A stretch of 63,870 nucleotides of DNA, the filler included, from Porpidia crustulata (Eukaryota): NCBI GenBank assembly GCA_964255105.1. It is 12 parts of 12 records of this genome, joined end to end, with 100 filler letters (N's around TTAATTAATTAA, not from the genome) between each part and the next. Parts side by side here need not be neighbours in the genome. Positions count along the whole stretch, not along the records: positions 21,399 to 26,639 come from CAXUWE010001874.1; 11 more parts are not named here. The stretch is one strand, 5' to 3'. A model generated the notes under the pieces. The model was not told where the DNA came from. It was given only the letters and a program-made list of their open reading frames with translations, and ran no database searches. A program made the position numbers and the translations under genes. The number at the start of each line of letters is the position of its first letter. Position 1 is the first letter of the stretch. Below are positions 5,253-27,120 of this stretch, one piece after another.

Positions 5253-5352
5253 NNNNNNNNNNNNNNNNNNNNNNNNNNNNNNNNNNNNNNNNNNNNTTAA
5301 TTAATTAANNNNNNNNNNNNNNNNNNNNNNNNNNNNNNNNNNNNNNNNNNNN
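5253..5352. other. Artificial contig-joining spacer (N44-TTAATTAATTAA-N44); identical spacers at 10604-10703, 15953-16052, 21299-21398, 26640-26739, 31980-32079, 37312-37411, 42634-42733, 47950-48049, 53260-53359, 58567-58666
   Basis: Eleven identical 100-nt blocks. The TTAATTAATTAA core gives stops in all six frames. Segment lengths decrease monotonically. Confidence 0.99.
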
Positions 5353-21081: not shown

Positions 21082-21599
21082 GGCTCTGAGTAGCCTCAAT
21101 TGGGCGTCCTTTCACACTCAAGTCTCTCACTAATGCGCCATTTTAACCATCAACAATACTTCAACAAGAAGTCATTTCCACGACAGACAGCGAAGGCGGC
21201 GTGAGAAGTAGACGTGCTACAGGTGCATCACCGTATGTCTCAACATTATTGATGCTGGAGCCTAAGTAACGGCCGTTAGGGCTTGGAGTATTCTACAGNN
21301 NNNNNNNNNNNNNNNNNNNNNNNNNNNNNNNNNNNNNNNNNNTTAATTAATTAANNNNNNNNNNNNNNNNNNNNNNNNNNNNNNNNNNNNNNNNNNNNGG
21401 GTAAGTGGGTGGGGGCAAATGTTCCGATTGTGATGCGTGGTTGTTGTGTATGTGGAAGTTGTTGTAGTAGATAGAGTAGGGGGGGGTTAAGGACTTTTTT
21501 GATGAAGCTGTGTGCGAGTTGAAGAGGCGACAGAGTACTAGTATTTACTACTCAATTGATACATAATCTAGACAGTCAATTTATCTTTAAGCTATCCCA

Positions 21600-22140
21600 A
21601 AAGCGATTCAATGGCGTAGAACTTCTTCTAAAAGCCATTGTTTCTGTACTAAGATTTCTTGCGAAAAGACATGTAGCCTGATAATGTGCTTAGAAGATTA
21701 TAAAATAGAGTCTGTAGCTGTTAAAGTAGTCATGTTTCTTTCGCCCAAGAATTGCATGGGGATCGAACGCTCGGTATCTTGGGGGAAGGGATGCGGGGAT
21801 TCTCGTCTTCATATTCGTTCCAGAATTCTGAGCATAAAGTGAGCTAAAAGTTGGGACTCATGTAGGAAAAGACGCAGTATGGGAAGCCTAACTTGGCTTG
21901 CTTTGAGCAGTCAAAGTTGCTGAACATATGCTTCTCTGAGAGTTCGTTGTTGATGAATAGAACAACTTGCCTCACCAATTCCTCTTTGCCGCATGACAAA
22001 ATTCCTTGTGTGTTTCTTATCGCGGAGAGATTATCTAGAACAATTGTCTACGTACGAAGATCGCATGTAGTGAATCTAATACCTGACGATCTGCATAGGT
22101 TCAAATCGTTCAGACTCTACACTAATGCCATCTTCAAGAC
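21600..22140 (-). pseudogene. Possible decayed intron-containing gene remnant
   Basis: Protein-like segments (DNLSAIRNTQGILSCGKEELVRQVVLF...; ILERI*RRESPHPFPQ...SIL*SSKHIIRLHVFSQEILV) separated by GT..AG intron-like spacers, with isolated TGA/TAA stops. Confidence 0.25.
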
Positions 22141-23273
22141 AATCTATGCCCTAATCCAATTGACACCTGTCAGATCATGCACCGTACCACACCACATCAT
22201 TTTTTCCCTCAAAGCCTAAACTTAATCTTTCAAAATGACCGAATAGGGAAGCTTTGGCTGCACCATCAACATCAGTTGCAGCGTATCTCACGGGGGAAAA
22301 AAAGAAAATCCTCAGTGAAACGGTCTGTGCACCGTATGAGGCTGACGGGTGACATCTGCACGCCGCGCTGGGTCTTGGGGTAAATTCTCCGATTATGCAT
22401 GGCCACGGCGTTGAGTCTGCACATCTTGGCAGAGGAGTATGTGAGGATAGACTTCAGCGTGGCGATATATGAAAATCTCGCATCAAGTAACGCAGTTTCA
22501 AGAACCTCGATGTAGCAGAAGAGCAGAGTTGTGCGCAAGATGAAGAAGCGACAGCCGCACGTGATGGGCACGCTTAAAGGATTTCTCAATGTTCTACGTG
22601 CGCTTCCTTGTTCCTTACGTGATGGAAACGCGGACCAAACCTTCCAAAGCCGCCAACCCCCGCTATCAAGGGCACTTAGTGGGAGTATTGTGGAAGTCCC
22701 GTCCTGATGCTCCAGCCTAAAGCAGGAGTATTTTGACGGTGGTGCCGACTAGAGGTCTAGAGGAGAACGCCACGGATCACACGAACAAATGGGCAGCGTC
22801 GTGGGCAGACGAGACGAGCAGATCTGACAGTGCCATGACGAATTTGGCATTCGGCAGATCTGTGACCCTCGAGCCTCTACTACTCATGCCAGATCCACAT
22901 CCATCGGACTCGTTCAGGCTTGGTTCGCCCGCAAGACCGAATCGCTATGAGATCTGGTTAGTGGGCAGGAGCATGGATCAATAATCATCGTGCTGATTGA
23001 GACTCCTGATTATGTACTTCCTCTCAATCTGCCATACATGTTCACTATCCGCTATCTTTAATCTTGATGAAGGGGTCAATGCATCGTTCCGCTTTCATAT
23101 TTGCTTCTTGACAACCTCGACGTTGGGCGCGAGCACATGAGCTTTTAGGCCGTGGAGCCCATTTTCCATTCGCTCCGTTATCAACCCAGATTTTTATATC
23201 TATCTGTGGTCTCTTGCATCTTTGGTTGCGAGGTTCTACAACATCTCCCATCGTGTCTTGATCACTTCCCAAC

Positions 23274-24523
23274 ATGGCTCCACAGACCAGCATCCCCATC
23301 GCAGCAAACGTCTTGGGCACCATTGGCACGGTGTTTTGGTGTGTACAATTACTGCCTCAGATATGGTTCAATTGGAGAACAAAAAAGACCGATGGCCTAC
23401 CCGCGCTGATGATGTTCTTGTGGGCTCTGTGTGGGTACTTGTGTTCCAAGACCATGTGCATGTTGGCTGATATCTAGATAGGTGCTCCTCCTTTTGGTGT
23501 ATACGCTGTGGTGCAAGTAAGATACACTTTGCTCATGATGCAGTGCACATCGCTGACCGTGCCAGAACTTCAACATCCCTATCCAAATCCAGCCACAAAT
23601 ATTCTGCTTTCTATCTCTCGTGAGCTACGCACAAATACTAGTATACACACAGTATATATCATCCCTTCCTCCAAAATCTACTTGGACACCTCTGACATAT
23701 ATCCGAGTAAATGGCCCACATGGAAAGCCGCGGCGTTGTCCACAGCGCTTGGATTTGCCTTTGGCGTTTTCGAGGTCGTTTTGATTCTTACCCTCAGAGT
23801 ATGTTATCTCCATAGTAGCAGCAAACAAGCTAACATACGAAAGGGCCCCTATAACCGCGGAGTATCGTGGCCAATGGTCCTTGTTGGCGTCATTGCCGCC
23901 ATTCTCCTAGCTGCCGGCATCATCCCTCCCTACCCCGAACTCATTAAACGCGGCGGCCGAGTTGTCGGAATCAGTCAGCGCTTTCCCTTTACCCCCTCCA
24001 CCTTTGACCCTATTCTTTCCCCGAAATTTCCAAACCCGCCTAATCAAAAATTCCCACAGATTTTATCTTCCTGTCCATGGACTGGCTCGGCGCCTTCTTC
24101 TCCCTCATGGCCCTCGTCGCCCAGCAAACCTTCGACGTCCTCGGCGGCGTCCTCTATATCTGCTGCATCATGCTCGAAGCCGGCATCTTCCTCTCCCACT
24201 TCATCTGGCTCGTACGCACCCGCAAGCTGCGCAAGCAGGCCAAGGACGCCGGCATCGATTTCGACGATTTGCCCGGGACGAGCAAGTATCGTGTCGCCGC
24301 AGACCGGGATCCCGAGGTCGTGGGAGGCATGGGAGGGGACAAGGAAATGCGCGCGAACGGGAAGAAAAATAGATGGTGGCGAAAAGGCACGAGGAGCCCG
24401 GGCGAGTCGGAAGAAATAGGCACGCAATCCCCAGGCTTAGTGCCCGATACGCCGATAAGCCAGGATTCCGCAGCAGGATCTGGGTCCCGCCACAACGACA
24501 ACAGAGCTAGCGAAGCGGTTTAG
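23274..24523 (+). CDS. PQ-loop repeat membrane protein (Ilt1/YDR090C-like), multi-exon
   Basis: GTIGTVFWCVQLLPQIWFNWRTKKTDGLP. Second repeat LLAAGIIPPY..GRVVGINFIFLSMDWLGAFFSL after splicing. Multiple hydrophobic segments. Confidence 0.88.
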
Positions 24524-25632
24524 CACAAGCAAAACTTTAGTCACAAGTCGTCGACCGAGATTGTCAAGAGTGCCACAGTCCCTACGCCTCCGCCCAGGGG
24601 AAGAACAGCGGATAGCGCGCACTGAAAACGCCACTTTCACATCACCGCAACCGCTCCCTCGCGGCCCACAGTCCCCGTCTCGCACAGGAACCGAAACGCC
24701 ACCGCCAGGATACCGTGCGAATCTCCGCCGGAGTTAGGTGTTTCGTCCTCGCCATCTGCGTCGGCCACCGTGTCGGGTGTTCCTAGTACTGTGGGGAGGT
24801 GATGGGCTGGGTTGGGCTGTGCTGAGATGGGACCATGAGCGCGTGGGGATGCGCCAGGGTCGGGGGGTTTTGTGGGTCGAGGACGCCGTCATCGTAATGA
24901 AGCCGTAATCGTGACATTGTCGCAGGAGCGGAGGAATGGACGAGGGTGAGGGAGACGGAGGTTCAGTCAGTGATTTTGTATCCGCTAGTTTGGGGGCACA
25001 GATCAATAATTTCGACAGCTCAATGACGTTAAAGTTTCCGCTGGCAGCAACAACGTTTATCATCCACTAACTTACAAAAGCTACGATTTATCCCTTATAA
25101 CCTAATAAAACCTACCAATTTTTTTTTTTAAAATAACAATTAGTATCTACTTTTAGGTGTTTGGACGTCCCAATCCGGGGGCCTTTGAAGCCGCTTTACG
25201 ATGCCAAAACACCGAGGCCAAAAGACCCGGACCGGTAAAACTCTTGAGCCGGACTCGATGGGTGAACAAGGATCTGCTAGTCTCAGGTTCTCTCGCAGGG
25301 CTTGCGCTTCCTCATGAATTGCACTCCATTTCTGGCTTACAGCTTCAAAATAGTCCTGCCCTCCTTACCGCCGTGCGTCTCTTGGGGCCGTGAACGTTAT
25401 TACACCATGTTGTACCTTCCCTTCTCCCCTGGACCCTTCTATCCTCCTCTACTCTGCCCTCAACCACGGCGCTGTGCAATCCTTTTTCTCTTTATCTATT
25501 CACCTGTACAACACACCTCGAGTGCTATCGTTCTTTTTTCTGGTCACAAGCCTGCCACCAGGGTTCACAGCCGCACTATCTTGCTCTTCCGCGAAATGCT
25601 CTATTTGTCCTCCACGATAGCATCCATACATC

Positions 25633-26639
25633 ATGCAAAGACGGCGGAAAACTGTCAGATTGCCCCCCAGCTTCTACATCCAACAGCGCAAGGAACTCGC
25701 AGACCAGGGACGGACTCCTCCTAAGCCTGCCGACAGAACGATGAAGAGCCTGGCGTCTGTAATAGTAAAGGTCAAAAAGTAGGTACTCTCGATCTTCTAG
25801 GTGCCATGGCTGTCAATACTAGTGGAGACTCTAGGTATTGCCTCGAACTTGGGAAGCACCAGGAAGCCTTCTTGAAAGAAGCAGAGATGCCAGATCTCAA
25901 AGTCTTTTGGTTATGGGTTATGAATAACTACAAGAGGATAGAGGCAGCCTCAAGCCTGAAACTTTACTGGCGGGTTCTACAAATGCACATCCTTGATAAG
26001 ACTGGTCGAGTCTTCAGTGGAAGTGACAAGAGAGACATCCGCAATGTAAGATGTTTTTTGGGATCAGAAGAAACTTGACTGACCGCTCGGCCCGTGCAGT
26101 ATGTCAAACGTCTCGAGGTCCAGTTCCGTCTTCGTACACTTCCCATGAAAAAACCCGTCGCAGATTGCGACGATCTGTATCTTTGGCTCTATACCCATTG
26201 GGTCATTGATGATTCGGTATTTCCGGATGAGCGCCAGCGGGTTCAGCATTCCGCAGGAATACTTATGGGCGGATTCTTCGGTTGTAGACTGTGCTCCCTC
26301 TTCGATACCAGAGTCAAGCTTGACCTTTCCGACGTCGATGACCTCAGTTTGAGCGATACAACAACGATTAGATATCACGATACGAACAGCAATCGTGGAG
26401 ACGACACCTTGATGATGATCGATTCTGGCTGCGGAGTTGATAGCAAGTCCACCAGGCTTCATGATCATGACGGTGAAGGCTACTGCGATTCTGATACCGC
26501 TTATGACAGCGAGAGCAACAATGACTCTAATACGGCTTATGACAGTAACAGTGACAGCGACGGTGACTTGAGTTTGCGCAACAGTATCGCTGAGGATTGC
26601 GATACAGATGATGAATGTACTGCGGGATCCGAAGAAACT
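25633..26639 (+). CDS. DUF3435-type tyrosine recombinase (Starship captain-like), 5' part only; exons 25633-25778, 25835-26045, 26100-contig end
   Basis: In-frame splicing via GTAGGT..CTAG (25779-25834) and GTAAGA..CTGAC..CAG (26046-26099). Motif KKPVADCDDLYLWLYTHWVIDDSVFPDERQRVQ..ILMGGFFGCRLCSLF matches the DUF3435 pattern, followed by an acidic insertion. Confidence 0.75.
26487..26558 (+). repeat. Imperfect 36-nt tandem duplication in the acidic insert of the recombinase
   Basis: DSDTAYDSESNN / DSNTAYDSNSDS encoded by near-identical units. Confidence 0.7.
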
Positions 26640-27120
26640 NNNNNNNNNNNNNNNNNNNNNNNNNNNNNNNNNNNNNNNNNNNNTTAATTAATTAANNNNN
26701 NNNNNNNNNNNNNNNNNNNNNNNNNNNNNNNNNNNNNNNGACGTATCTGCTGGGGGAGTGTTGAAAATAGAGCATCTAGGTCCTACGACTAGGTTATAGC
26801 ATTAATAGAAGATTCGGTGGGTTCTATCGCTGGCCACACTGACGTAAACTTGTTCCTACTGAAAATTCCACGGGAATTGATTTCACCATAGTCTATGTTT
26901 TGAAATCAACATACTCGTCAAATTAAAGCGCAAGAGCTCTGTACTTGAGCCTATCACGTGAGTTTCAACGGTCAAACATTTCAATGCAACTATTGTACTG
27001 TGCATTTTATTCTCCTTCGTGGTTAGAAATAAAAAGAATGACAAAGATAGGACTTGCTCTTTCAATACTCTTCCACAAACTCCACAAGCTTTCCATTCGC
27101 GACGTTAACGCTGCTCCATT

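Follow-up and report, generated by a model that had tools for sequence, protein, structure and literature searches.

The probable left end of a Starship-type mobile element in Porpidia crustulata: a truncated captain gene and its relatives

Starships and the Porpidia locus

Starships are cargo-carrying transposons of the Pezizomycotina that are led by a captain, a tyrosine recombinase with a DUF3435 domain (PMC9156397). The captain is always the first gene of the element and bears an RKHRY pentad (PMC10104507). Here we describe a locus of this kind in a stretch of 63,870 nt of DNA from Porpidia crustulata (assembly GCA_964255105.1), referred to below, at its full length, as the window. Positions 25134-26639 probably form the left (5') end of a Starship-superfamily mobile element that belongs to a multi-copy family. 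In this reading they hold a junction of the T(A/T)AC type, then a non-coding terminus of 492 nt, and finally captain codons 1-299 out of about 810. The nearest named relatives of the captain are found in lichen-forming Lecanoromycetes.

Several described systems are pertinent. Movement of Hephaestus requires its captain, HhpA, and the target reads TTAC(N7)A (PMC10104507); the Hephaestus family is marked by direct repeats with a TTAC core (PMC11162782). The site of Phoenix is given as TTTACA in Table 1 of PMC9156397, which also lists NOD-like receptor (NLR) and FRE genes as conserved Starship cargo. The starfish pipeline discards elements shorter than 15 kb (PMC11162782). A 2026 survey of 554 lichen-associated genomes reports 1,508 captains and defines a Tangerine family, a Lecanoromycete-specific clade in which most captains have no core-binding domain; its section 8 places many Xanthoria captains in the Phoenix and Galactica families (PMC13486527).

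A shared boundary to the left of the captain

The left end is located by comparison with other copies. A scan of metagenome contigs yields 78 related loci, 28 of them close. In 25 of the 28 the match to the window begins at 25119-25142 and none reaches further left, the neighbouring PQ-loop gene included, while the other three start at the ends of their own contigs. A common start preceded by unrelated flanks indicates that the left end of a mobile element lies at about 25134-25141. The earlier note on this DNA, made from the sequence alone, had proposed that the contig captures such an end, and the junctions in the related loci and in the run contigs described below bear it out.

When two pairs with identical flanks are merged, 23 loci and the window provide 24 independent junctions. 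There is no conservation to the left of position -7. From there the counts (n = 24) are T 22, A 17 or T 6, A 23, C 23, A 20, C 17 and T 20; CAGTATCTACTT comes next. These seven positions give the consensus T-(A/T)-A-C-A-C-T. The window reads TAACAAT, then TAGTATC from 25141. This heptamer is likely to be the crossover or direct-repeat region at the left end. The flanks outside it are AT-rich, with a median of 71% and values of at least 60% in 22 of 23, that of the window being 68%. Two loci, L020 and L021, are 99.97% identical over 5.7 kb and have in common 16 nt (GTAATTTATAACACT-like) to the left of CAGTATC, after which their flanks are unrelated. The 9 nt that they share beyond the other junctions may mean that the terminus or target extends further left in that subgroup, or that site preference involves more than 7 bases.

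The same edge is seen in the sequencing data. Run X1, which holds 0.88 of the words of the contig and is probably its source, has the left part as a single contig at a depth of 10.6, whereas from 25133-25174 rightwards it contains several contigs that are 86-99% alike. Four of these run leftwards into differing sequence, with loose ends at 25133, 25137, 25140 and 25174. Three further runs have the same edge, at 25131-25141.

The captain ATG at 25633 lies 492 nt inside the boundary, on the + strand and with no intervening gene, and the same layout recurs in 25 related loci. The captain reads inward and is the first gene, as in Starships. The terminal 492 nt, 90.7-93.3% identical to those of L001, L002 and L003, probably hold the recombination site together with the promoter and 5' untranslated region of the captain.

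The captain gene and the contig end

As the earlier note had read it, the beginning of the gene is made of three pieces that splice in frame through two canonical introns of about 55 nt; we find them to be 56 and 54 nt long, both with GT..AG ends, and the joined coding sequence of 897 nt comprises 299 codons with no stop. The peptide that it quoted, DDLYLWLYTHWVIDDSVFPDERQRVQ...ILMGGFFGCRLCSLF, and its acidic insert, rich in Asp and Ser, were both found in exon 3, where the insert starts at about 26322. The same exon contains the motif GFFGCR, whose arginine, R182, is encoded at 26286-26288. The product is collinear from Met1, and unbroken over both junctions, with full-length DUF3435 proteins annotated in two lichen fungi, Bacidia gigantensis (P0005) and Xylographa parallela (P0006).

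Gene models were made for 23 related metagenome loci, with L018, L020, L024, L025 and L027 omitted as duplicates, insertion-bearing or very short contigs. Introns 1 and 2 occupy identical places in all 23 and have GT..AG ends in 22, the exception being L026, in which intron 1 is of the AT..AG kind. Their lengths are 57 nt for intron 1 and 51-56 nt for intron 2. The exons remain in frame despite the varying intron lengths and the protein alignment is unbroken, which argues that the splice model is not a chance reading. By sequence comparison, the three-exon model is confirmed. Further downstream the relatives have a third intron, of 72-75 nt, and the intact ones encode about 809 codons in four exons. 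Exon 3 of L009 encodes, at residues ~341-363 of the spliced product, a stretch of 23 residues just after the lysine of an HTKGED motif. It is present in all close copies but not in the proteins P0009 and P0017, and could represent a fourth, in-frame and stop-free intron of 69 nt.

The captain gene continues past position 26639, which is the final base of its contig and hence an assembly break. The window itself is composed of 12 unrelated contigs of about 5.3 kb each, joined via 11 N/TTAATTAATTAA/N linkers at 5297, 10648, 15997, 21343, 26684, 32024, 37356, 42678, 47994, 53304 and 58611. Since the pieces are separate contigs, features on different pieces are not genomic neighbours and genes at the edges are cut; the element fragment occupies the right end of the piece at 21400-26639. 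Other parts of the captain gene are absent from the rest of the window, with no blastn high-scoring segment pair outside 21400-26639, and a tblastn search of the window with P0001, P0006 and P0007 finds the captain locus as the sole match. An extension beyond 26639, sought in the contigs of the sequencing runs, gave nothing usable. Related metagenome contigs also end inside the captain, those of L012, L013, L015 and L017 at 730-990 nt past the start of exon 3. The simplest reading is that a short-read assembler was probably confused by diverged copies in the same data. The contig ends of L003 and L005 likewise lie within the captain gene, which fits assembly collapse among repeated copies.

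Recombinase family and predicted fold

Membership of the DUF3435 tyrosine recombinases, claimed from the start, is borne out through homologues. A database search with exon 3 retrieves eight proteins at E<=0.01 among 511 candidates, and seven of the eight carry PF11917. In L009 and L022 exon 3 matches positions 50-210 of this profile and exon 4 positions 221-417/418 (E ~1e-22 to 1e-23). Intact orthologous copies with the entire PF11917 domain are 84-94% identical to the window in nucleotide sequence.

The fold was approached with P0009, a full-length relative of 789 residues from a Variospora metagenome-assembled genome (PF11917 E 3e-59); searched against a library at E<=1e-3, it matches 1,552 representative clusters. 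Its AlphaFold2 model was built on 43 sequences and has a mean predicted local distance difference test (pLDDT) score of 78.6. In a structural alignment residues 26-480 of the model match the recombinases Cre, XerA, XerH, lambda Int and Tn1549 Int (Z 12-14, 240-275 residues, 3.2-3.6 A). With Cre, 268 residues superimpose at 3.2 A, model residues 26-473 falling on Cre 24-314. This aligner ranks XerA (Z 14.3), XerH (Z 14.1) and Cre (Z 13.7) first, ahead of lambda Int, Tn1549 Int and Flp. Chance can yield Z values of this size for helical models, but here both domains are covered and the matches are all recombinases. In a Foldseek search of the PDB the top matches are all Cre, with probability 1.00 and a best E of 1.3e-3, none falling below 1e-3.

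The P0009 model thus has the core-binding and catalytic domains of a two-domain, Cre/Xer-like tyrosine recombinase. In the alignments the N-terminal domains of Cre and XerH fall on its residues 28-135, while residues 194-298, the equivalent of the acidic insert, are disordered. The window encodes the equivalent of P0009 residues 1 to ~305. Judged by the model, this comprises the core-binding domain, the acidic loop and, between them, the opening helices of the catalytic domain, where GFFGCR lies. In relatives the arginine of GFFGCR is followed, in catalytic order, by HTKGED (which supplies the Lys), LRRG, FDH and GYYLD, and R452, R453, H474 and Y482 are at least 90% conserved among 43 family members. 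R182 is therefore predicted, as the earlier note held, to be the first catalytic residue: it occupies the expected place of Arg I, after the core-binding domain and before the hairpin lysine, a position assigned by order and not by superposition of residues. The pattern G-x-R-x-x-S-L is box-I-like.

The first gene of the element would accordingly encode a DUF3435 captain whose core-binding domain is Cre-like and whose catalytic domain is split by an acidic loop of about 100 residues. By analogy with HhpA of Hephaestus, which has been studied by experiment, the full captain may act on DNA at the two element ends and at short T(A/T)AC(A) targets lying in AT-rich DNA, cutting and rejoining it. 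It would then move along with everything between the two ends.

Payloads and a probable right end in the relatives

All copies have in common just a core of 3.14-3.2 kb, made of the 0.5 kb terminus and the captain and ending shortly after the captain stop codon. Downstream of this core at least four types can be distinguished (A to D in Table 1), and the payload differs from copy to copy: some carry NLR genes, others a lichen-specific protein or genes for a methyltransferase, a SET-domain protein and Piwi.

Type A gives the clearest view of a right end. L009 and L011 are 98.4% identical over 8.1 kb, have different flanks and diverge together at a shared end sequence, ...GTTTACTA (...GATTGTTTACTA). 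TTTAC is present at both ends of both. Their common point of divergence seems, from these alignments, to be the right end of an element of about 8.1 kb. Past this point there is a ferric reductase gene in L009 and a NACHT gene in L011; the TTTAC repeat at the shared end suggests that these belong to the flank or to an outer element and are not cargo. L019, also of type A, ends 70 nt short of the end point of L009 and L011. A second, different DUF3435 gene in the same orientation is found at L019:13605-15093, 1.5 kb past the truncated type-A right end, and the elements there may be in tandem or nested.

The 5 kb payload of type A gave no match to Pfam. Near its right end it encodes a protein of about 225 residues (L009:16150-16911, L019:11187-11948; weaker in L033 and L058), for which 44 relatives are found in databases; those with names all come from lichen fungi (Lepraria, Stereocaulon, Dirinaria). 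This protein may be an unrecognised accessory gene product of these elements. A stretch resembling its gene is also seen about 10 kb downstream of far more distant captains. An ESM Atlas search with the 254-residue open reading frame (ORF) of the 8.1 kb type returned no usable match.

In type B, L022 and L023 have unrelated left flanks and are 92% identical for at least 10.9 kb, up to the end of the L023 contig. The shared stretch contains an NB-ARC+TPR NLR gene with 126-nt repeats and a NACHT/NPHP3_N+ankyrin NLR gene. The number of 126-nt repeats (42-residue TPR units) in the first of these (L022:9157-10311; also L006, L014, L021 and L023) varies between copies. Variation in repeat number of this kind has been described for fungal NLRs.

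Signs of recent movement are found in this family. Copies at different sites are from 98.4% (L009/L011) to 99.97% (L020/L021) identical, and nine intact captains are under purifying selection. These features lead us to put forward, tentatively, a compact (~8 to >11 kb), multi-copy and recently mobile Starship-type lineage of lichen fungi. Its elements would target T(A/T)ACA sites within AT-rich DNA, and behind a constant captain module of 3.2 kb they would exchange payloads, for example NLR genes. The view that the contig holds the left end of a Starship is largely supported at the level of the family. The PF11917 homologues and the sharp junction uphold the family and the left end, but the giant size and the cargo on other contigs that the earlier note attached to the element stay conjectural for this copy, and the relatives look compact (~8.1 kb; at least 10.9 kb).

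State of the window copy and alternative readings

A number of observations weigh against placing 25134-26639 at the left end of a Starship-superfamily element, or limit what can be drawn from this copy. The profile check that the earlier note had suggested gives no match for the window's own product: none of the three exon translations matches PF11917, or any other Pfam entry, at E<=1. In relatives the profile match opens (position 50) right after '...SEET', which is where the contig ends, and this would explain the lack of a match. The DUF3435 membership of the window is therefore founded on its PF11917-bearing orthologues and not on a score of the fragment. A single catalytic residue of the five, the first Arg, is visible. 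The right end, the cargo and the empty site of this copy are unseen. In run X1 the junction is spanned by one contig, with just ~33-37 nt on the element side, and the run may be of a mixed (lichen) sample, so that summed depth is not a copy number. As for the relatives, neither DUF3723 nor patatin domains occur among the 76 downstream ORFs scanned. In L009:9020-17140 no terminal inverted repeat joins both ends among the 25 longest of 101 short pairs; the best inverted match, by eye, is a TAGTA/TACTA-like 5-mer, with nothing beyond ~5 nt. The related elements also look small, one type, at 8.1 kb, falling below the 15 kb cut-off of starfish.

The state of the window copy also counts against it. 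Among the 23 modelled loci, nine (L001, L006-L011, L014 and L016) have a complete, open gene of 809 codons and six are open as far as their contigs reach. The remaining eight are degenerate, with stops or frameshifts, and one of them also has a 3.6 kb insertion that carries an integrase H2C2 zinc-binding domain. The ratio of non-synonymous to synonymous substitution rates (dN/dS) is 0.19-0.36 in the intact copies, also when the first 299 codons are taken alone. Between the window and its nearest relatives, L001 and L003, it is 1.0-1.1, with 31-34 non-synonymous and 8 synonymous differences. Polarised with eight other copies, the window branch shows 20 non-synonymous and 6 synonymous codon changes, and 18 residues that are invariant in nine other open copies are changed in the window. 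This neutral-like pattern suggests that the window copy is probably no longer under selection, though no stop has arisen. A bias resembling repeat-induced point mutation on this branch was considered and rejected, transitions being about equal in both directions.

The window copy could thus be a relic: a captain remnant, whether solo, inactive or truncated internally, that lacks cargo and marks the left end of a dead element. The copy may indeed be decaying or truncated. The substitution pattern and the degenerate state of eight relatives speak for this, and degraded Starships are common (PMC9156397). However, the 299 visible codons are without stop or frameshift and both introns keep GT..AG. 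The absence of stops in ~40 substitutions is mildly unlikely under neutrality (a rough estimate of ~0.2) and is not decisive either way. All in all we give this reading real weight, although we consider it somewhat less than probable.

Another explanation assumes a small Crypton-like transposon of ~3.2 kb that consists of the recombinase gene only, the DNA downstream being that of the host. It would account for a common core that ends just past the captain stop, and for the failure to detect long terminal inverted repeats in type A; moreover, Starship recombinases are related to those of Cryptons (PMC11162782). On the other hand, copies with unrelated left flanks share 8.1 kb (L009/L011) or at least 10.9 kb (L022/L023) rightwards, and there are six junctions of the NLR type. 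Independent insertions are not expected to share host DNA on their right side only, which counts against a recombinase-only element, as does the domain, PF11917, which is that of Starship captains. We regard this explanation as improbable. That the gene is a domesticated or ordinary host gene, fixed beside the PQ-loop gene and merely containing a DUF3435 domain, is hardly credible: its frame is open throughout the visible part and many fungal DUF3435 genes lie outside defined elements (PMC9156397), but of the 25 related loci with sequence across the boundary not one has the PQ-loop flank or matches left of 25119, the left flanks are of 24 different kinds, run X1 contains diverged copies with other flanks, and there is no purifying selection on the window branch.

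The 3.6 kb insertion mentioned above is the same in captain exon 3 of L018, L020 and L021 (L021:10837-14478), and its ORF matches PF17921. Judging from this match, a fragment of a retroelement is nested there and disrupts the captain.

Features of the locus

The coordinates of the features are collected in Table 1. The left neighbour of the element, at 23262-24523, is an intron-split gene for a membrane protein of the PQ-loop family (PF04193, E 1.6e-16 on 23262-23477). The last open frame of this gene region ends ~610 nt before the element junction. A contig from run X6, of a related organism, matches the PQ-loop exons at ~85-90%.

Table 1. Features at the Porpidia locus (window positions) and payload types among related loci
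Feature	Position or loci	Strand	Basis or remark
AT-rich host flank, 68% AT, outside element	25034..25133	.	contig mean 50.3% AT; no related locus aligns left of 25119
Junction heptamer TAACAAT (likely crossover or direct repeat)	25134..25140	+	TAAC (25134-25137) fits T(A/T)AC core; 24 independent junctions
Element 5' terminal non-coding region, 492 nt, begins TAGTATCTACTTTTAGGTG	25141..25632	+	conserved in 25 loci
Captain exon 1 (ATG; 48 codons + 2 nt)	25633..25778	+	sequence; models of relatives
Intron 1, 56 nt, GTAGGT...CTCTAG (GT..AG), phase 2	25779..25834	+	alignment to relatives
Captain exon 2, 211 nt	25835..26045	+	alignment to relatives
Intron 2, 54 nt, GTAAGA...GTGCAG (GT..AG), phase 0, CTGAC branch-point-like motif	26046..26099	+	alignment to relatives
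Captain exon 3, first 180 codons, cut by contig end	26100..26639	+	predicted end of core-binding domain and start of catalytic domain
Assembly join (N run, TTAATTAATTAA, N run)	26640..26739	.	non-biological; next piece unlinked (no physical linkage beyond 26740)
Type A	L009, L010, L011, L016, L019, L025/L026		8.1 kb in L009 and L011
Type B	L006, L007, L014, L021, L022, L023		NLR genes; six different left flanks, six independent junctions
Type C	L001, L004		FtsJ-like methyltransferase, SET-domain gene, Piwi fragment
Type D	L002

Implications for lichen fungi

Starships carry entire genes from place to place in a fungal genome and from one fungal genome to another, and what they do in lichen fungi is only starting to be described. 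Captains from lichen fungi have already been published, and the window fragment adds a member to a known Starship group. The compact size and modular payloads of the relatives are a mildly novel angle. Because starfish, the standard pipeline, removes elements below 15 kb, it would not report the 8.1 kb type, and if a compact lineage exists as proposed, such elements would be systematically overlooked by annotation. The window locus alone, a truncated and possibly decaying copy, adds little. The surrounding family is more useful: its 24 independent left junctions share a clear target motif, its captain model of four exons is conserved, and one captain module is seen with several payload types. 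These data would let compact Starship-type elements be annotated in fragmented lichen assemblies, and they allow a test of whether such elements shuttle NLR genes.

Comparison with known systems

The likeness to Cre, XerH/XerA and lambda Int lies in the predicted two-domain fold (Z 12-14, 240-275 residues) and in the order Arg, beta-hairpin Lys, Arg, His, Tyr, which is kept. Identity is just 10-16%, and the captains described here differ further in the disordered acidic loop of ~100 residues after Arg I, in a helical C-terminal extension of ~300 residues and in a Cys/His-rich tail. Cryptons resemble the family in having an intron-bearing eukaryotic tyrosine-recombinase gene without long inverted repeats, and one type here (8.1 kb) is likewise compact. 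In contrast to Cryptons, the domain is PF11917, as in Starship captains, and each copy brings several kb of additional genes, which vary; instead of the recombinase gene alone, 8.1 to at least 10.9 kb is shared between differently flanked copies.

Among Starships, the Tangerine family (PMC13486527) also has its captain in Lecanoromycete-like hosts, ~0.5-1.4 kb from the 5' end, with NLR and methyltransferase genes downstream, and short-read contigs break in or near the element there too. However, Tangerine measures 85-102 kb and is reported at a single locus, while the present family is multi-copy. Moreover, the core-binding domain is present in the P0009 model (28-135) and encoded in the window, which makes the captain unlike those of Tangerine.

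Phoenix, from Macrophomina phaseolina, is similar with respect to the junction, since L009 and L011 have TTTACA at their left junctions, with T(A/T)ACA as the consensus here. It averages ~74 kb, whereas the relatives described here measure 8.1 kb or at least 10.9 kb. Hephaestus of Paecilomyces variotii, with its captain HhpA, likewise has a DUF3435 tyrosine recombinase as the first 5' gene, and variable cargo (PMC10104507). Both have a short TTAC-type end repeat (here T(A/T)AC, and TTTAC at both ends of L009 and L011) and what appears to be target-like sequence at the termini. They differ in that the second junction position here favours A over T (17 versus 6 of 24) and in that the host is a lichen-type fungus. 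The flanks here are AT-rich, whereas the Hephaestus family, as reported, shows no enrichment for AT-rich sites (PMC11162782). L009 has the downstream A of the TTAC(N7)A target and L011 lacks it. Overall the T(A/T)ACA junction points to site use like that of Hephaestus or Phoenix, a likeness drawn from the junction sequence and not from phylogeny.

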